This document shows positions 48,999-59,343 of a stretch of DNA of 64,000 nt, in pieces (positions within the stretch are counted from its first letter, which is position 1; every line of letters starts with the position of its first letter). The notes beneath the pieces were generated by a model that saw nothing but the letters and a program-made list of their open reading frames with translations, was not told the DNA's origin and did no database searches. The stretch comes from Rhizodiscina lignyota (taxonomy: Eukaryota). A program made the translations under genes and the position numbers. The DNA lies in the NCBI GenBank assembly GCA_010015805.1, contig ML978123.1, positions 2,914,001-2,978,000 on the forward strand, given 5' to 3'.

Positions 48999-49826
48999 TT
49001 ATAGCTTTGCCGCCCTTATCCGCTTCTTCTCTTTACGAGCTTCTTCAGCTGCTCGCCTGGGATTCATCACGTATACCAAAAGTCCCAGACCGCCGGTATA
49101 TGGAAGAGTCGTCATGCTCGACTTAATCGCAGTCTTGCCACTCTTATTCTTGCCAGTGGTTGTGTCTTGCTGCTTTGTCGGAGGTAACTTCACACCTTTA
49201 AGCTTCAGATTCGTGTCGTTTTTACCCACACCTCCTGCCTGCTTCATGATCGGGGCTCTTTCCACACATCCCCTGGGATTCTTTACGTACACCAAGAGAC
49301 CTAGACCCCCTGTGTACGAGATCGCATCCTTGCTAATCATAGCCACGGTCTTGCCGTTCTCTTTCTTGATGACAGTGACCTGATCTACTTTCTTCATCTC
49401 CGGAAGCTTTACCACCTCGCATTTCAGATCCAGCTCCTTCATCACCCCATTTTCATCAACCTGCAGCTTGGGCTCCTCAACGAGATTCACCACCTCCCGT
49501 TTTGTAACGACGCCAACCTTGCTCCGGCTATCGTCGACGTCCACGCTGATGCGGTAGCCCAGCTCCTTGGTCATGTCATCTAGATGGAAGATATCCAGCT
49601 CAGGGAGACAGCAGTCCACACATGGTTCATTGCTTTCCTCCGCAGTGAGCGTGACATTGTGCTTGTCGTCGCCGAAGATCGGGTGCTGCGATGGCATCTG
49701 CAGTGCCTGGATGTAAGGGAACGTCGTCGCGCGACGCACGAGCGGCCTGATGGCATACTGACAGAGGGTGATGCGCTCGTGGATGTGGTGGCATGGGCGG
49801 TGGACAGTGCGGTGGTTGTAGCACAT
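48999..49826 (-). CDS. Hypothetical protein, 275 aa, with N-terminal Cys/His motif and a duplicated C-terminal motif
   Basis: MCYNHRTVHRPCHH...LC...CVDC; YTGGLGLLVYV(K/M)NPR occurs twice; ACAATG start context; TATA-like element near 49975. Confidence 0.78.
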   Translation of the reverse strand: MCYNHRTVHRPCHHIHERITLCQYAIRPLVRRATTFPYIQALQMPSQHPIFGDDKHNVTLTAEESNEPCVDCCLPELDIFHLDDMTKELGYRISVDVDDSRSKVGVVTKREVVNLVEEPKLQVDENGVMKELDLKCEVVKLPEMKKVDQVTVIKKENGKTVAMISKDAISYTGGLGLLVYVKNPRGCVERAPIMKQAGGVGKNDTNLKLKGVKLPPTKQQDTTTGKNKSGKTAIKSSMTTLPYTGGLGLLVYVMNPRRAAEEARKEKKRIRAAKL

Positions 49827-50924
49827 TGTTGTTGCTACGTAGCTTTTTAGTTTTGTTTGTTGGGCTGATTGAATGAAATTTACCTCTTTGACTGTGTCGC
49901 ACTGTTGGGAGCTTTCAAAGATCTTTGAGAGAATTGGGTCAGTTGGTGATGGTTGGGGTTACACCGCCAGATAATATATAGCAAACGATGCCCAGTGAAG
50001 TGTTTGATCTTGTATAAACGGAAGTTACGGCAATTGCGACAAAACACGGCCCAATGACAGTATTAACCAGTATCGCTAAAAGATTTGGTCTTGTGAGAGC
50101 GAATTCGGCGGTTGAGGAGTGCGAACGTAGTTTTGATATTGAGGTCCTGCAACGAGTCGACGCGGAATGCTATGCCGACGATACCCTTTCATGAGCGAAA
50201 CCAAAGGTGGATCATATGCCCCATTACATTTGCATCCTGATACTGGAGGCGTAGTACGACGGGAAAGTCATTTGTGGATATGACCGATTGTGGCTGGATT
50301 GGCTCGTAATGTTTCACAAACGAAGAGTGTTTGATGTATCGAGAAGACATCTTCGTATCTGAATTTTTATAGAAAATTTGAAAACAAGATAATGTATATG
50401 AATGCTGCAGTTTCAACAAATGCCTTTCATCACTTCCCTTATCGTACCAAGCGCTTGTGAATTGGAACTGGGCAGAACGGGCCACAATCGACGGCCGTTC
50501 AAATGTCTTCTAGATATGGCAGATAGAAGCACACACAAACTGACAGAGGAGATTGTATAGTCCTAACAGAAAGCTTTTACTGAAAACTCTCAGCGAAAGT
50601 GGCCATATAAGACCTGAGTTGATGTTGCCGTGTCGCATTAATTTGGTCCATGGGAACCACAGTTTTGGTGTTGGGATCTGGTGATGTCGTGACTTCAGGT
50701 CTAATCACCCTTCCTTTGCAGACTGAATCACGAGAGTGGAATATGAAAGTGAGGGAGAAGTATGTATGTATGGTGATTTCAGGACGTAGAAGTTTTACTC
50801 ATTGCTTAAACAGGAATAGCGTCGTCTCAAGTTGATGGAACAATCCGAGCATATCATCAACGTTGACATTGAGCAAACAGCATTCATTTCATATAAACTA
50901 AGAACTCCCCTCACTCATCAGCCT

Positions 50925-52195
50925 TCAAAAGAAACTTGATCCGAAAGCATCGCCTTGTCCTCCTTCCATAGGCTGAAGTCCAGCTGGGAACGGGCCAAGG
51001 AGGACATCTCCCCTTCTCAAAACCTTGAAGCCCTCTTTCAACCTCCCCGACTTTCCGTATCCTTTCGCAAGGGCTCCGAAGACTACTCTTATCTGATTCA
51101 CCTCTTTCGCTTCTGCAAAGCTCTTCAAGCCCTCGGAGGAGTACACCCTGATGTGACACCCTTCCAAGACGTTGACAGTCTTCTGCATCCATGCGAATTC
51201 GGTCTTTGCTCGTCGGAACAGCAACGCCACTTTATATGCTTGCTCGCAGATCTTGCAGACCTCCACCTGTACTGACGCTTCGCAAGCTCTGCTGCTGACC
51301 TCATCTGGGTAAATGAATGGGGCCAATTGCTCATGGAGCGGATGGACCATTGCAGCAGCCATATCGAGGGCGCATTTGCCATCTAGATCGTATCTGCGAG
51401 ACAGCTCAGCAGTTTTCATTCGCCAATTCACCCGTTCCTCGTATGAGACTGTATCATTTTCTTAGCATTCTGCTATTTTATGCGCATCTTTGACTCACCC
51501 TTGCTGCTGTTAGACATGAAATTTTCAAAGACTCCTAAGAGGGTATCGGTGTCACGATCGAACCCGAATAGCAATGCTTCCGGGGAAAAGAGGCGATCGT
51601 ATAAGAAGTCTGACACCATCCCCATTATCCACCATGCTCTCATATCCACCGGCAGCGGTATTGAACCGTCATCCTTCACTTCAATTTCGTCGCAAATTCG
51701 GTTGATGACTTGGAAGATACTGTGCACAAGCTGGCCGAAAGAATTTTCGATCTCAGCATCAGTTGGTCCTTCGCCGCTCATTTTGTTGCTAATGATGATT
51801 TTGTGCAGTTTTCGATTCTCTTTATCCTTCCCAGCGGCATCGCGTCTTGCTTGATCTAGTTGCTCTTTCAACTGTCCGATTTCCTGTTCCAAGCTTCCAA
51901 TCTGCGAGACGAGCTGCTTGGTGGAAGCCTCACTTGGCTCAGTCTTCTCCATGCCTGCGCTCCCTGACTTTAGCAGGTTTCTAATTGGGCGAGGAATGCT
52001 AAAGGATGCCGAGTAGCTCGCATGAGGTCGATGCTTGTCAAGTTCAGCCCCTTCTCTTTTCTCTCGCATCTTTTGAACGACCGCATCCAGCCACTCTGCC
52101 AGATTTGCATTAATTTTTGTTTCAATTTCGCGTTTAATTGCAGCCGTTGTTTGGTCAAACTCAGCCAGTTTCTGTTGGCGTTCTTGATCGTCCAT
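50925..52195 (-). CDS. Coiled-coil protein, 406 aa, with a GrpE/MIEAP-like C-terminal motif; divergent partner of the Hsp70-like gene
   Basis: Exons 52195-51499 and 51448-50925 (intron GTGAGT...GCTAAG...CAG) total 1221 nt in an open frame; heptads LVSQIGSLEQEIGQLKEQL; C-terminal IRVVFGALAKG...FKVLRRGDVLL. The GrpE-likeness is my inference. Confidence 0.85.
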
Positions 52196-52707
52196 GGTTT
52201 CCGCCTAAAAGAAGGGCAGTATTGGGGTTGGATTTTGACCTTGCTTTATAAAAGCCGCGGCATGTTTAAATATTAAGTGGAAAGAACTGGTGGAGTGACA
52301 GCATCCCCGGAAGATGCCCACATGCACACCAGACAGCGGCAGCCTTTCGCTCGTAGCCGCCAAATAGGTCGTACAGCGCTATCAGGATTTCCCACTCAAC
52401 AAATCGACCAACATTCACAATTTCTATTCGCCGGCCGAGAAATATTGCATCACCTGCGTCGTGTGTTGCAGTACGATTCTTAAGGACCTCGCGACCGTAC
52501 CCGCTTGATATAAAGAGGTAGCGCTCAAAAGTTCGATGTATGCGTCCACTCTACCGAAAGTCTCGCCATCGGCAGCTAGCTGCCTTTCATTTTGCAGTAT
52601 ACTTGTGTTCACATCAACACGAGCGAAAGGCCTTTGATCCGCCGACATTCTCTGCAACGAATTTCTTTTCCACCTCGGGCACGAAAGTGCTCAGCACGTT
52701 CGCCATC

Positions 52708-55071
52708 ATGAAAAAATGGTTCAAGGTCAGTAATTCAGCTACAAAGGCTCCTTCAAAAGCATCTCCAAAAGGCAAAGGTGGCGCTCAAGCGTCTACAGCT
52801 CCAGCGGAATCAACTGTGGACAGAGATCCCAGGAGACTCGTCATCGGGCTTGATTTTGGCACCACATTCAGCGGGTTTGAAGCTCCCTTATCCACGCTCG
52901 GCCCACCATGCTGATATAGTCAGGATCGCATTTGCATTCGCTGGAAAACCTGAGGAGATCCACTGCGTGCTCGATTGGCCTGGAGCGACAGGTCGTCAGT
53001 TCCCCAAAGCGCCAACATTGGTGCAATATGGCAAGCAGGGATTCGCATGGGGGTACCAAGTAGAACCAACAGCTGAAGGCGTTGTCAGTTGCGTGAAGTT
53101 ACTTCTGGACCCAGGGCAGAGTCACCAATCATATGACCCAAAAAGGATGTTCAAGAAAGTTCCGCAACCCCCAGACCTGCCGAAAGCCCCGGTGGATATT
53201 GCGACAGATTACATCCGTGCCATGTATTCTCACGCTCTCGTTTATATTGAACAGAAACTGGGGAAAGAGTATATGGAGTTGTTGTCCAAAGAGTTCGTCT
53301 TGACGGTTCCTGCAGTGTGGTCAGACAAAGCGAAGGACCTTACAATCAAGGTGCGCAGTATTTGGAGAAAATTAAAATAAGATCCCCAGCCTCTTTTGGA
53401 CATAGGCTAACAATACCGTTAAAGGCTGCTGAAGGCGCTGGTTTCAGTCCAGTCACTCTGATAAAGGAACCGGAAGCTGCGGCGCTCTTTACGATCCACC
53501 AACTCCAGTACAAAACAGTTAATGTGAGTAACGTCTCCTCTGTCTCTACTTGTTGTTGGAGGAAAGCTCACACTGCTCTGATAGGTCGGAGATGCTGTGG
53601 TGGTCGTTGACGCTGGTGGTGGCACAGCGGATCTGCTTACTTACGAGATCCAGAGGCTCAATCCAATGAAATTGAAAGAACTTGCTGCACCTATGGGTTA
53701 GTCCTTCATCATGTCAATCCTCCAAACTCCTTTGACGCTAAGCATACTGCTCAGGCGGGATAATCGGATCAACGCTTATAAACAGATTGTTCGAGGACTG
53801 GATAAAACTGAAGGTCGGACCAGAAAGACACGCGACGTTGAGTAAGACTGAAGCATATCGGAGCGCCCTCAAAACATTTGATCAATCAACCAAAGTGCAG
53901 TTCGAGTCACCCGGCGCGGATCAGTTCGTGTCCTTTGCACCAGAAGCCTTAAACAACAGCGAGCCCCAGGGCATTAAAAACAATTTCATAAAGCTGACAG
54001 GGTTTGTCTCTGAGTAGCCATGGCACACGGTGAAACTGATGTTTTCAGGACTGATTTGGGCGGCTTCTTCGAACCATCCTGCACCGCCATTGCGGGGCTG
54101 GTTGCGAAGCAAATCGGCATGGCGACCAAAAGGCGCAACAAGGTCTTCTCGGCAAAGTGCAAAGATGTTAAAGTTGTTCCTTCGACAGTCTAGAAGTAAT
54201 CGCTAGCTAATCACTTGACAGGCCATTTTTCTCGTCGGCGGTTTTGGAGAGAGCAAGTGCCTCAAACATCATGTTAGCTTCAACAACACTCACATCGAAG
54301 TGATTCAGCCCATTGATGCGTAAGTCATCTTTCCACGCCTGGAAGCTATCAGATCACGGCATGACAGAGCTGATGTACTCATAGCTGGTCTGCTATTGTG
54401 AAGTAGAGCCCAATGAGATCCTCCTGCGATCAGACACTTACAACTCTCAGGGGTGCCGTTCTTAGCAAGCTTCCGCGAGAAGTCATAGTCGAATCGACTA
54501 TTGCACCGAGGCATTACGGCGTAATAACCGGTACAATATATGATCCACAGAAACACCAAGGCCAGAACATATACGAAGCTATTTGGGATCAGACATTGCG
54601 GGTGGACGAGATGCTTTGGTTCATACACAAGGTTACAAGCACCTGTCATTGGCATTTACAAGCTGACCACTCCTAGAACGAAGACATTGTTATGTCGCGA
54701 GAGAAGAGCCAAACTTTCTTCCACAATCTCCCGAACGATCCCACGCGCGGTGATTTTATCAGGGAATACGTCCTCATGATGTGCGACGAAGACGACGCGT
54801 CGAAGTACCCTGATGACAGTAGGTTGAGATAGTCCGTTATTTGAGTTCTGCAAAAGCTGATGAAGATCTAGCGGTTAGGAGGTGCTGTAAGTTGAATGTC
54901 GACTTGAAAGGTATTCCAAAGACGAGTATCCAGAAGTTGAAACGGCCTTCGGACGGCCTGAAATACTCCAAGGTCAATTTCAAGCTCATCGTGAGAAGCC
55001 AAGGAGCAAGAATGGTCTTTTCTTACGAATGCGGCGGGAAAGAATATGGCTCAGTCGAAGCAATATACTGA
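52708..55071 (+). CDS. Atypical Hsp70 (HSPA12-like actin-fold ATPase), 604 aa, 11 exons
   Basis: IGLDFGTTFSG, DWPG, VKLLLD, FVLTVPAVWSDKAK, IKEPEAAA, VVDAGGGTADL, FLVGGFGES, AWSAIVKGAV, RHYG. Exons 52708-52874, 52924-53350, 53425-53523, 53585-53696, 53755-54001, 54049-54172, 54222-54319, 54385-54402, 54451-54631, 54677-54818 and 54872-55071 total 1815 nt in an open frame. Confidence 0.93.
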
Positions 55072-57240
55072 ACCCGGCGAGGACTGCATGGTCACAGGGG
55101 TTAGAAATGCGGCTGATTATTCTCCGCAAGATCTTGGAGAGTTTCGAGGAGATTATTCACAAACCAGTTCGCAACCATGTTCTGCAGAGCCACGCAGCTT
55201 CTCCGCGGTGCTGGCGGTTCCACAAAAGGACCTGCGTTATCCTCGGCAATCAGTGATATTCGAGTATACTTGCAATTCTGCTGAGACCCTGATGAACTGG
55301 ACTCGTGCTCGTGCTCTCTCGGTTGGTCGCAGAACGTGTCGAGATGGCGCCACAGCGGCTTGAGAAGTGATACGAGGAGACCCATGTGGCGATCGTGAAC
55401 GGTGAAGGAGACATGATCAATTGAGGGACCGAGCATTTATCTCTCAGTCCCGAGTGAGCCGACGAGAATGCTGCACTTCCGCGACACGGGAACAGCGGTG
55501 GAGCAAACCCCTCACGGCCTCGTGAAGTCAATTGTGAGAAGACCTGTCATGATGGGCCAACGTATACCTGCAGCGCCTTTATGGGGTCAGCGACGCAGGA
55601 GTGCGGAGAAGAGCCTCGTCAGCAGTACCTCTACGCGTACCTCGCGCGTGCAGAGCCGAGATGCTGCGATGCATAGGGAGCGCGGGTTACCGCGACGTGA
55701 GGCCTTGGACGCGGCAGAGGCCGCAGAGCAGCATGAGGCTGTTCGCAGGCCGGGAGAGGTGCATCTGGGGCGGCAGGGGTCCAATTGTCCAATTCTAGGC
55801 TGGCGTTGACGGCCTCTTGGTCTCACGGTCTCACGGCGTGCAGTGCCAGCATGCTGCTTCTGCGGTGTGCTGACTCGGCGCTCTCCTATTCCGTGCCTAC
55901 CTCGCGCAGCTCGAGCTGGAAGCCATGCAGGTGTCAGACATGGCCCCGTATGCATTCGGCTGTACGCACTTCCCAAAGGTGAAGGTGGTGCAGACGGATG
56001 GAGAGCACGCCCACGGTGCGTGCTGCAACGGGCCTAGCGCGCAGGCTAGCGCGTTTGCAGGACGCGTCGTAGCGCGTCGCGCTTGCCTGCTCTGGGCCGG
56101 CGTCCAATCTGCCTCCAATCCTCGCCAGCGCCCTCCTCCCGCGCCCCCAAGTGCTGCGTACATTTCAATCATTAGCTACGCTGCCCGTCCTGCACCTTGC
56201 ATTTTTGCTGCACCTGATACCTATCCGCACAGCGGGAGCCATCCGCGCCGTTGACTCGCCACGCGCCGTAGCTTGCTCCCAGCCCGTCCTCCCACGCAAA
56301 ACCCCCGAAGCTCGATCGCCTCCAGTTGGAGCTGCGGCGCGTCACGACAGCGAGCTGTCAAGTATCGCGCTGCTCTGGACGACGCGGCGACGACACGCTC
56401 GAGCGATCAATTGCCTGCCATCGAGAAGTGTCAGAGGATCGGTCGTGCTACGCTGAGGCCATCAGCGATCCTGTCGCCAGATTTAGCGTGGCCGCCGCGC
56501 CAAGAAAAGCAGCACTTCAACTCTCCGCTCGCGCGGTTTCGACTGCGCACCTTCAACCTCCACCGCTCCCCACAACGGCGAACACCCAGCGCCCTCCACC
56601 TCTTGCTCTCCAGCAATTCGCTCTCTGCTGACAGTATGCGACGCGCATAGCTTCTTTGCCCAATTTTTTGAGCTGCGCACTGTCGGCGACATTTTTCTCT
56701 TCTATTGGGTGTCATTCACTCGCTCCCTCCGAACCGCCCCAGCCACCTCGACCACCACGACAAATCGGTTCCTTTGTCTGCGCGCAGAGTTCGGAGACCA
56801 CCTGTACATTCGCGATACCCTCTACATACCTCCGGACACGTCCCACTTCCCTTTGTACAAGTTGCGGACATTTCACTTTACGGGCGCATCACTCGCTGTC
56901 GCGACAATTCACTTGTGCGCACCACGCTCTTTTCGCTGTCCGCGGCCACCAACACGATTCCCACGAATACCATTCTCATACCACTGTCGCGCGCAGTGCA
57001 CCTGGACCTCTTTGGCCACCTTTGACCGCGCCGCCCTCTGGTCTTGCACTTGACTGGACATCACTTTACCCTCCGCGCGTCACTCCTCAAACACATATCT
57101 GCCCCGCTGTGGAACACGAGTCTGTTTGGAACAAGGGAACCTGTCTGCACCCTGCTCGAGACGATTTGACACCGACTGGATACCAATTGTCTTGATTCAT
57201 TGGACAACATTGTTACTCTTGTACGGAACATCACTACAAG

Positions 57241-59343
57241 ATGTCGCCAAACCGACCTCGTCCTCGGGGCACCTTGCCCAGGAATTTCAACTTGCGCTCT
57301 CGAGATTTTGGCGACGCTCCGAAGACACCGGAGCCTGACTTTGTCCCCGACCACATCGACCCCCCTCCACCGCCGAAGCAGCCGGCCAGAAGCTTGAGAA
57401 GCAGAACCCTGAGGCGTGGACTCAATAGTCGCGCGGCCATCCCAGACTTCTCAGCTCCTTCCCAGTCTTCCACTCCATTCGACTTTCCCATTCCCACTAT
57501 CGAGGCTCCAACTGCCGAGCCTACCCCACTGCAAGTGCCGAGTCTCAGGCGCGTCTCTCTGAATGCGAGGTTTCTCACACCGGAACCTTCGGATAACCCA
57601 TCATTCACATCCCCAATGACGCCGATGGCGCAAGTCGGCAATGACGAGTCCGGATCCTTCGACTTCTTCGACGTCAAGAGCTTGGGCGAGAGCATTAGCC
57701 GCCCCTCAACTGCCTGCTCGGATTTCTCCGACTCGTCTGCATCTTCGGAAGAGACTCTCGAGTCCTTCCCTTCATTCGGTGCAAGCTCAGCAAGTCCTGA
57801 CCGCGACAACGATCCTTTTGGACCGTTGAAGATAGCTACCTCTCAGGAATCACTTCTGTCTTCTCCATTGAACAGCTTCAATGTCATCGAACCACCAAAG
57901 GCGATCTCGCCTCAACAGAAAACCCCTCACAAGAAGAGTGTTTGGACAGAAGAGATGGATAGACACCTTTGGTTAACCTTCCTCAAGTTTCTACAGGATC
58001 CGCAGCATACTCCGTTCAAGCTCTTCCCAGGCTCCCACCCACCGCTCGGTGTTTGCCACCGTGTTGCACACGAGGCAAAGAAAAGCTGGAAGCAAGTTAG
58101 GGCGCGTAATCTTGGAAACGCACATCAATCCGAACATATGCTACTTACAGATCCTCTTACAGATGCCACTCAAGCGGCCAACAGCGGCGAGAGCACCCCT
58201 ACTGCGTTCGATGTGCGCAAGCCAGTGCCGGCATGGCCTCGCAACGCATCCACCCGTCGTCGATTGCGCATGCTCTGCAAGAAGCAGCCAACATTGTCGG
58301 CTCACTACCAGCGCTTGATGCAGACCCGTAGCCCGTCACCATTGCCATCATCCAGCTCGTCCAAGCCTGCAGGTGGTCACACTGGTGTTTCACCTATCCC
58401 TGAATCACCTCGCTCTGAGAGGCGCACTCGCTCCGCCTTCTCTACCCGCGACATGAACATCTCCCTCACCTCCTCGATGCAATCGGGCGGTCCACTCAGC
58501 AAGCTCGCAGCAAAGAAGCCTGTTGCAGAGCCAAGTTCTATGAGCATGGATGGTGCCTGTGACGAGCCCGACGAGGCCCCCGAGCTGGTCGAGGCGGAAA
58601 GCCATGGTGGCGCGCATCAGAGAAGTCACTCCCTCCAACTCGGCATCCAAGCATCTTCAACCCCACCTACCTTCCGCATGCTTGCTTCACCCATCCGCTT
58701 CCCGGGTGACCAGCAGCCGTCGACGTGGAGCCACCAGCCGAGGGCCTCAACCACGCTCGCTCAAGTGGACACAGAAATGTCAGACTCGCCGCAGCTTGAT
58801 CCTCCAGCAGAGCTGCATGCACCTGCTCCTCTCTCGCATTCGTTGAAGCGCCGCGCTCGCTTGCACTTGGACGACACCCACTATCAAGCTGTACGTGAGG
58901 AACTGATCCGGGATGTCTTTGGTGCTACTGCCGAGAGTAGTCATCGCCGCGTTCGAAGCAGAGGCTTCAGTCTTGGAGATATGGAAGGCGAGAGACGCGC
59001 GCCTCTGCCAGCTTCCGCTCCCGCCATTCCCCCTCCACCCCCTCAGCTCATCAACAACCACCTCACTGGCAACGTTCCATGGCTCGTACCACCACAGCTG
59101 GACGTCCCGCAGCGCCTCGGCTCTCCTCTGCAGTTCGAGGACAAGTTCTCCACGGTCCCCAGGGACTTCAAGGCAGGCGAAGAAGGTCTCCAAACCTTCG
59201 AGCCATCCGCTTCCTTCGAAGAGCGCCTCGGTGCAATGGCTCCCGGCCGCGTCCGCAAGCTGTCAGGCCCAAAGAGCCTAGGCAGAAACCTTCCGCGCAA
59301 CCGCGCCCCCCTGAACCGTGTGTTCGGCACTGACGGCATCTGA
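57241..59343 (+). CDS. Conserved fungal hypothetical protein, 700 aa, largely disordered with a Myb-like W-motif core
   Basis: Intronless ORF; core WTEEMDRHLWLTFLKFLQDPQHTPFK...PPLGVCHRVAHEAKKSW...TRRRLRMLCK; HRRVRSRGFSL. Confidence 0.85.
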   Translation: MSPNRPRPRGTLPRNFNLRSRDFGDAPKTPEPDFVPDHIDPPPPPKQPARSLRSRTLRRGLNSRAAIPDFSAPSQSSTPFDFPIPTIEAPTAEPTPLQVPSLRRVSLNARFLTPEPSDNPSFTSPMTPMAQVGNDESGSFDFFDVKSLGESISRPSTACSDFSDSSASSEETLESFPSFGASSASPDRDNDPFGPLKIATSQESLLSSPLNSFNVIEPPKAISPQQKTPHKKSVWTEEMDRHLWLTFLKFLQDPQHTPFKLFPGSHPPLGVCHRVAHEAKKSWKQVRARNLGNAHQSEHMLLTDPLTDATQAANSGESTPTAFDVRKPVPAWPRNASTRRRLRMLCKKQPTLSAHYQRLMQTRSPSPLPSSSSSKPAGGHTGVSPIPESPRSERRTRSAFSTRDMNISLTSSMQSGGPLSKLAAKKPVAEPSSMSMDGACDEPDEAPELVEAESHGGAHQRSHSLQLGIQASSTPPTFRMLASPIRFPGDQQPSTWSHQPRASTTLAQVDTEMSDSPQLDPPAELHAPAPLSHSLKRRARLHLDDTHYQAVREELIRDVFGATAESSHRRVRSRGFSLGDMEGERRAPLPASAPAIPPPPPQLINNHLTGNVPWLVPPQLDVPQRLGSPLQFEDKFSTVPRDFKAGEEGLQTFEPSASFEERLGAMAPGRVRKLSGPKSLGRNLPRNRAPLNRVFGTDGI

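Follow-up and report, generated by a model that had tools for sequence, protein, structure and literature searches.

The two genes discussed here lie in a 64,000-nucleotide stretch of the genome of the Dothideomycete fungus Rhizodiscina lignyota (contig ML978123.1, positions 2,914,001 to 2,978,000; hereafter the window), where an Hsp70-like ATPase of the HSPA12 type and a coiled-coil protein, here called the partner, are encoded head to head. Filamentous ascomycetes (Pezizomycotina) have a conserved two-gene unit of which this pair is a copy. The two families are adjacent at at least eight loci, the window included, in five species and two fungal classes; the paired ATPases belong to one subfamily, and the trees of both families have a common deep split. 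Since the two genes are neighbours in several distantly related fungi, they probably work together. The likeliest mechanism, to which I assign a probability of about 0.6 from sequences and a structure model, is that partner and ATPase form a physical complex, in which the partner, dimerised through a coiled coil, would act as private cofactor to an HSPA12-type ATPase that is active and has no lid.

Adjacency was called from locus tags and/or GenBank accessions that follow one another on a contig. Successive accessions on one contig were taken to denote neighbouring annotated genes, and wherever both kinds of identifier were given, the accession-based calls agreed with the locus tags. Seven further partner genes, one locus being counted in two assemblies, have an Hsp70-like gene as their next annotated neighbour, when ATPases are taken from the best 120 of the 866 matches to the full-length ATPase:

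Bathelium mastoideum: ATPase M1821_006725, partner M1821_006726 (KAI9654197/8)
Bathelium mastoideum: ATPase M1821_008915, partner M1821_008916 (KAI9661677/8)
Bathelium mastoideum, second assembly: ATPase M1822_002118, partner M1822_002117 (KAI9687507/8)
Xylaria arbuscula: ATPase NPX13_g3354, partner NPX13_g3355 (KAJ3577211/0)
Xylaria digitata: ATPase KAI0539552, partner KAI0539553
Niveomyces insectorum: ATPase OAA63621, partner OAA63622
Rhizodiscina lignyota, second pair: ATPase KAF2103534, partner KAF2103535

Rhizodiscina and Bathelium contain two pairs each, and the pair has been duplicated as a unit. Both families are also present in Aspergillus section Nigri. A metagenome scan with a seven-row subgroup of the partner returned one 2.7-kb contig (L003), too short to hold a neighbour, and tblastn with seven ATPases gave no match. 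The initial annotation had proposed a dedicated two-gene module, and the recurrent adjacency, the single ATPase clade and the common deep split bear this out.

The last two of these points come from phylogenies of the two families. In a FastTree phylogeny of 119 ATPase relatives, all seven rows known to be paired fall in a single 31-row clade (support 100), and none of the 88 rows of its sister group is known to be paired; the hypergeometric figure for this distribution, about 5e-5, overstates its significance because the ATPase rows are kin. Within the clade, one subclade of 12 rows (support 99) contains the four Dothideomycete pairs and another of 14 rows (support 100) the three Sordariomycete pairs. 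The partner tree (IQ-TREE quick mode, 22 rows) places the same four in a 9-row clade (95) and the same three in a 7-row clade (99). The two trees also agree in the taxa of rows not known to be paired: the ATPase of Aspergillus niger corresponds to the partner of A. awamori in section Nigri, Rhinocladiella and Cladophialophora (ATPase) with Exophiala (partner) in Chaetothyriales, Candelina with Candelaria in Candelariaceae, Xanthoria with Xanthoria, and Pleosporales with Pleosporales. The partner evolves much faster, with 20-30% identity between pairs versus 38-75% for the ATPases.

In the window itself, the two genes and the region between them are laid out as follows (window positions):

50925..52195, minus strand: partner gene, ATG at 52195, stop at 50925-50927, two exons, 406 amino acids (aa)
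52195-51499, minus strand: partner exon 1, followed by a GT-AG intron at 51498-51449
51448-50925, minus strand: partner exon 2, with the stop codon inside it
52196..52707, no strand: intergenic region, 512 nucleotides (nt) between both ATGs, read from the sequence
52247-52253: TATAAAA, assigned to the minus-strand partner gene
52509-52515: TATAAAG, assigned to the plus-strand ATPase gene
52708..55071, plus strand: Hsp70-like (HSPA12-type) ATPase gene, ATG at 52708, stop at 55069-55071, 11 exons
52708-52874, 52924-53350, 53425-53523 and 53585-53696, plus strand: ATPase exons 1-4
53755-54001, 54049-54172, 54222-54319 and 54385-54402, plus strand: ATPase exons 5-8
54451-54631, 54677-54818 and 54872-55071, plus strand: ATPase exons 9-11

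Earlier claims of two intact divergent genes, of TATA-like elements between their start codons and of a setting among housekeeping genes all hold. The splice models and the public protein models confirm both genes, the two elements were located in the sequence, and a Pfam scan of the genes around the pair found a PCI-domain protein, a Bub1/Mad3 kinase, CwfJ and the largest subunit of an RNA polymerase. The partner product is identical in every letter to the public model P0001 (406 aa). Its intron falls between K232 and V233, and among the relatives of P0001 many single-exon fragments start or stop near residues 226-240. The ATPase gene, with ten introns of 45-74 nt, all GT-AG, has an open frame of 1815 nt and a product of about 602-604 aa, and its splice model equals the public model P0002 (602 aa) but for one alternative donor. 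At the sixth intron (window 54167-54221) the donor of P0002 lies 6 nt upstream of that in the splice model, so that KCKD rather than KCKDVK is joined to AIF; as the family consensus KAIFLVGGFG favours the donor after 54172, P0002 may be two residues short. Both genes are real and not chance open reading frames (ORFs), given the Pfam HSP70 score of P0002 and the 86 relatives of P0001 described below. The region between them is a putative shared bidirectional promoter.

One observation concerns the assembly of ATPase exon 1. The assembly graph of one public DNA run breaks within this exon at window 52754-52844, where a 91-nt contig with a loose end at 52844 has a depth of 245 versus 150 and carries two differences (52789 G>A and 52802 C>A). 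The greater depth and the two differences suggest a short, near-identical copy of this part of the exon elsewhere in the genome.

Several observations count against a conserved and cooperating pair, and some of them suit a simpler explanation, in which a bidirectional promoter or the chromatin context holds the genes together as regulatory neighbours and their products do not interact. At least 8 of the 18 named partner loci, window included, are paired, the remaining 10 having no neighbour information and not being negatives, and for the pairs outside the window the records give neighbour order and not gene orientation. None of 84 partner-family members is longer than 450 aa and none is fused to an ATPase; the lack of fusions would suit mere regulatory neighbours, as would the head-to-head arrangement with 512 nt between the start codons. 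The pairwise identities of the seven pairs give Pearson r = 0.72, Spearman 0.26, p = 0.25; the Pearson value is driven by the two Xylaria pairs, and the weak rank correlation again fits products that do not interact. As to the tree congruence that the initial annotation had asked about, the deep split of four and three pairs is common to both trees but congruence is incomplete at the fine scale, where the trees disagree on some sister pairs of weak support within the Dothideomycete clade. However, shared regulation accounts poorly for an adjacency that has been kept across two classes and in the duplicated copies of Rhizodiscina and Bathelium, when Pezizomycotina otherwise lose their gene order rapidly, and for a pairing confined to one ATPase subclade with the same deep split in both trees. 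Thus, I consider it unlikely that the two genes are regulatory neighbours only.

The cooperating pair has an ATPase that looks active, judging from its sequence. P0002 contains all four ATPase motifs quoted in the initial annotation (DFGTT, EPEAAA, DAGGGT and LVGGFG) and matches Pfam HSP70 (PF00012) with an E-value of 9.3e-8 and 31.2 bits, above the cut-off of 20.6. On its own it matches DnaK nucleotide-binding domain chains at E 8.8e-8, and the ATPase family profile matches the DnaK nucleotide-binding domain at E 1.8e-13 over the whole domain, with profile positions 22-419 of 589 aligned to DnaK residues 4-363; in P0002 the domain covers about residues 44-445. D49, K114, E213, D240, T245 and D247 of P0002, in the aligned motifs DFGTT, VKLLLDP, KEPEAAA and DAGGGTAD, align with catalytic or phosphate-binding positions of DnaK, which I take to be D8, K70, E171, D194, T199 and D201. 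Furthermore, P0002 retains 112 of the 121 columns that are conserved at 90% or more among the 119 relatives. Its terminal branch in the tree of these relatives is 1.22, versus a median of 0.18 and versus 0.37 for its paralogue P0151 from the same genome; P0002 thus evolves much faster than P0151 yet has kept its catalytic residues.

The remainder of the ATPase is unlike that of a canonical Hsp70 chaperone, of which P0002 has no recognisable substrate-binding beta domain or lid and no EEVD terminus. Profile positions 420-589 have no match in full-length DnaK/Hsp70 chains, including their substrate-binding domain and lid, as each chain aligns in a single stretch that ends by profile position 419, and P0002 ends in GSVEAIY. 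With these positions unmatched and with EAIY at the end, the earlier statement that the protein has no helical lid and no EEVD holds at the level of sequence. The last ~155 residues of P0002 form a C-terminal domain that does not appear to be an Hsp70 substrate-binding domain. The label 'HSPA12-type' comes only from the names that sources give to several relatives ('Heat shock 70 kDa protein 12A/12B'). The animal proteins HSPA12A and HSPA12B, to which these names point, likewise have a divergent nucleotide-binding domain and no helical lid.

The partner belongs to a family of its own. P0001 contains the motifs quoted for it in the initial annotation (DAEIENSFGQLVHSI, WRMKT, ICEQAYKVALLFRR and IRVVFGALAKG...VLRRGDVLL), with the correction that the spacer in the last of these is 12 residues and not 10. 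An exhaustive HMMER search of 1.84 billion representative sequences found 86 relatives at E<=1e-3, 29 of them at E<=1e-10, with matches spanning residues ~95-388; a word-indexed search with partner exon 2 returned P0001 itself only. All looked-up members that have a name are from Pezizomycotina, namely Pleosporales (Ophiobolus, Lindgomyces, Massariosphaeria), Bathelium, the second Rhizodiscina copy, Peltula, Candelaria, Xanthoria, Coniocarpon, Niveomyces, Xylaria, Elaphomyces, Exophiala and Aspergillus awamori. Pfam gives only weak coiled-coil-type matches on P0001.

AlphaFold2 was run with an 84-row alignment, giving a model with a mean predicted local distance difference test score (pLDDT) of 86.5, which was used instead of a single-sequence model with a pLDDT of 38. 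The N-terminus, which is variable in the family, is modelled as a helix (residues 3-54) and a disordered stretch (56-85). Three parts follow:

51779..51931, minus strand: long conserved helix, residues 89-139, pLDDT 91-97
51210..51760, minus strand: six-helix domain, residues 146-312, across the intron, in the AlphaFold2 model
50997..51197, minus strand: C-terminal beta domain of six strands, residues 317-383, pLDDT 93-97

The long helix, in which L109 is invariant (22 of 22 family members), is a likely coiled-coil dimerisation element according to this model. The six-helix domain (helices 146-170, 183-203, 214-229, 235-252, 257-278 and 286-312) carries the family motifs GPxDxxIxxxF, FGF, EWRVRT and ICxxAxxLALLFR and the conserved columns D146, F153, I160, F203, F210, G211, W241, R242 and A303. 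The beta domain (strands 317-320, 332-337, 352-356, 358-362, 373-377 and 379-383) carries the family motifs (E)YxWxQ and VFGGVxKG...L....V, with conserved columns Y/F317, W319, Q321, F356 and G357. None of the conserved residues looks catalytic; they are mostly core aromatics and glycines, as would be expected of a protein that binds or acts as a scaffold more than of an enzyme. A Foldseek search of the model against the PDB found nothing at E<=1e-3. In a structure search of the Atlas, the domain recurs in other fungal clusters with template modelling (TM) scores of 0.71-0.74, and in one Basidiomycota cluster among these structural neighbours 57% of the proteins also have an MMR_HSR1 GTPase domain. 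The family and its fold appear to be undescribed, and the PDB holds no clear structural relative.

A short segment of the partner, KLHKIIISNKMSGEGPTDAEIENSFGQLV (window 51725-51821, residues ~125-157), resembles a motif repeated about nine times in P0129, a 1009-aa FYVE protein whose repeated motif is placed by Pfam in the C-terminus of the WASH-complex subunit CCDC53. P0001 itself has no CCDC53 match in Pfam, and the likeness may reflect a shared short helical hairpin or chance. P0129 and P0133 (1009 and 1655 aa) had been candidates for ATPase-partner fusions and were rejected as unrelated repeat proteins (CCDC53-type repeats, FYVE) without Pfam HSP70.

On the reading that the two products form a complex, both genes would be driven from their common 512-nt divergent promoter, and the partner would dimerise via its coiled coil and bind the ATPase as a private cofactor. 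It might then either tune the ATP/ADP cycle of the ATPase or couple the ATPase to a target or cellular place. GrpE-like nucleotide exchange is one possible version of such a role, and the initial annotation had gone further in taking the partner for a GrpE-like nucleotide-exchange factor. In that proposal the partner, as a homologue or a structural analogue of GrpE, would use its beta domain, the tail likened to GrpE there, to open the nucleotide cleft of the ATPase, and the pair would be a private Hsp70/nucleotide-exchange switch. There is a resemblance to DnaK or mtHsp70 with GrpE or GrpEL1 (PF00012 with PF01025), in that a helical protein is encoded beside a nucleotide-binding domain of Hsp70 type whose catalytic residues are present, and grpE and dnaK adjoin in bacteria. 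GrpE and the partner are also alike in the order of their parts, which is a long helix, a helical region and a small C-terminal beta domain, but the helical domain of the partner is much larger and the two have no sequence relation. The partner family profile A1 aligned to Escherichia coli GrpE (NC_000913.3) by hhalign with a probability of 0.14%, over three columns covering only the residues KGY. Against all PDB sequences the partner family profile found coiled coils only and no GrpE, and GrpE (PF01025) was absent from Pfam scans of P0001, of 22 members and of 27 C-terminal pieces. In the Atlas structure search a GrpE cluster appeared at a TM score of 0.30, which is noise level. Unlike the DnaK system, the ATPase in the window lacks a substrate-binding domain and lid, the fungal unit has no J-protein, and the partner has no HPD motif. 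The partner as a GrpE homologue is therefore not supported by sequence, and GrpE-like exchange, by homology or analogy, is an unlikely, minority possibility.

The comparison of the C-terminal part with MIEAP and with the plant IRKI proteins, also made in the initial annotation, fares somewhat differently. Among ESM-Atlas clusters the 30 nearest to residues 140-395 of P0001 are unnamed ascomycete clusters (0.92-0.94); among clusters with a name, GIL1_IRKI_C (0.83) and MIEAP (0.78) come closest. For P0120, the partner from Xylaria arbuscula that is ~20% identical to P0001, GIL1_IRKI_C takes ranks 1-3 and 9 (0.76-0.82) and MIEAP rank 4 (0.78). The best ten named matches include 5 (P0001) and 6 (P0120) in the same family or clan. 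Atlas scores below 0.9 are leads only, and shuffled proteins often reach the range of these named matches. The Pfam hidden Markov models (HMMs) of MIEAP (PF16026) and GIL1_IRKI_C (PF24994) have no match at E<=10 in the 22 full-length members and 27 C-terminal pieces, in scans where the HMMER filters drop most matches above about 0.1 and very weak ones could be missed; DUF641 matches the partner coiled coil faintly (E 0.46-1.2). The comparison is thus weakly echoed by the embeddings of two divergent members and finds no support in the Pfam HMMs, a repeated hint and not a demonstration. In the order of their parts the proteins are alike, since both the MIEAP type (the C-terminal domain of Mieap/SPATA18) and the GIL1_IRKI_C type (with a DUF641 coiled coil) have a globular domain at the C-terminal side of a coiled coil.

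A broader and rather doubtful proposal builds on this likeness. HSPA12-type ATPases might have an ancient class of dedicated coiled-coil cofactors with a MIEAP/GIL1-IRKI-like tail, functionally akin to GrpE, whose genes would be linked to the ATPase in fungi and unlinked in animals (HSPA12 with Mieap/SPATA18) and plants (with GIL1/IRKI). If this were true, the fungal pair would be a genetically tractable entry to the functions of HSPA12 and of MIEAP-domain proteins.

Another explanation comes from bacterial relatives of the ATPase and from the initial annotation, which had suggested a role in defence or nonself recognition. Here the pair would be a conflict module (defence, allorecognition or toxin-antidote-like), in which the ATPase would be a switch driven by nucleoside triphosphates and the coiled-coil protein would serve as its sensor or its effector. 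The best bacterial ATPase relative found lies in Nocardia tenerifensis (locus L004, 4995-9518), where a 564-aa Hsp70-like gene runs into the start of a coiled-coil ORF of 291 aa (ATGA overlap) and is translationally coupled to it; a DO-GTPase2 gene follows about 0.9 kb after the 291-aa ORF and about 1.7 kb from the Hsp70-like gene. An excerpt of Kaur et al. (2020; PMC7159879) calls this kind of neighbourhood a conflict system. The prokaryotic GTPase-centred conflict systems in that excerpt resemble the fungal pair in having an HSP70-family ATPase in a small conserved neighbourhood with non-chaperone partners, but the fungal unit consists of just two genes, and neither a GTPase nor a tubulin lies near them. 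Homology of the fungal partner profile was detected neither to the coiled-coil ORF of Nocardia (a probability of 1.3% for that ORF against A1 in hhalign) nor to any other ORF of the bacterial loci, the best match of the partner HMMs (A1 and A2) to all ORFs of 37 bacterial loci with ATPase relatives being E 0.2. Across 401 genomes of the same class the Nocardia ORF has two further matches, both weak, and it is too rare for a profile. In the Arthrobacter-type loci (L006-L009, L020, L022 and L023) two Hsp70-like ORFs stand in tandem, each about 700 aa long, in place of an ATPase with a partner.

Within fungi, the patchy spread of the unit, its lineage-specific duplicates, the fast evolution of the partner and the GTPase in the Basidiomycota structural neighbour would all suit a conflict module. 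However, PADLOC matches neither protein, and the Pfam-scanned neighbours, all housekeeping genes, include no NLR, HET, HeLo or other death-domain gene. The suggested defence or nonself role thus has no evidence behind it and is speculation, with which the patchy spread, the duplicated pairs and the fast partner are compatible, and a conflict module is the least probable of the explanations considered here.

Two stretches beside the pair were also seen. Directly downstream of the partner gene, on the minus strand at window 48999-49958, is a 319-aa open frame that has no Pfam match and contains an internal repeat, with YTGGLGLLVYV.NPR seen twice. On the other side, the ATPase gene is followed by an ORF of 715 aa at 57196-59343, again without a Pfam match. 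Between the two, window 55500-57000 has a GC content of 0.62-0.65 versus about 0.48 in the pair, and this GC-rich stretch may contain 5' exons of the 715-aa ORF.

What, then, would a private cofactor of an HSPA12-type ATPase mean? HSPA12-type relatives of Hsp70 are widespread and sometimes hugely expanded, and Hsp70-family ATPases rarely act without cofactors. In comparable cases, Ssz1-Zuo1 (the ribosome-associated complex, RAC), HscA-HscB and HscC-DjlB/DjlC, the cofactors are J-domain proteins, and in eukaryotes they are not known to be encoded beside the ATPase. Like the proposed fungal pair, each of these combines a specialised Hsp70-family ATPase with one private cofactor, a comparison that also draws on the abstract of PMC8476630. 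The fungal partner differs from them in being of a new family and in being genomically linked. In full-text searches of the literature I found neither a fungal pair of an HSPA12-type ATPase and a partner nor any HSPA12 cofactor described, and an excerpt of a 2026 review (PMC13580251) gives the function of HspA12 as unknown. An Hsp70-family ATPase with a dedicated cofactor is an already known kind of system, and what appears to be new here is the partner family with its fold. Because its gene has remained adjacent to a single HSPA12-type subfamily while fungal classes diverged, the partner is a concrete candidate for such a cofactor.

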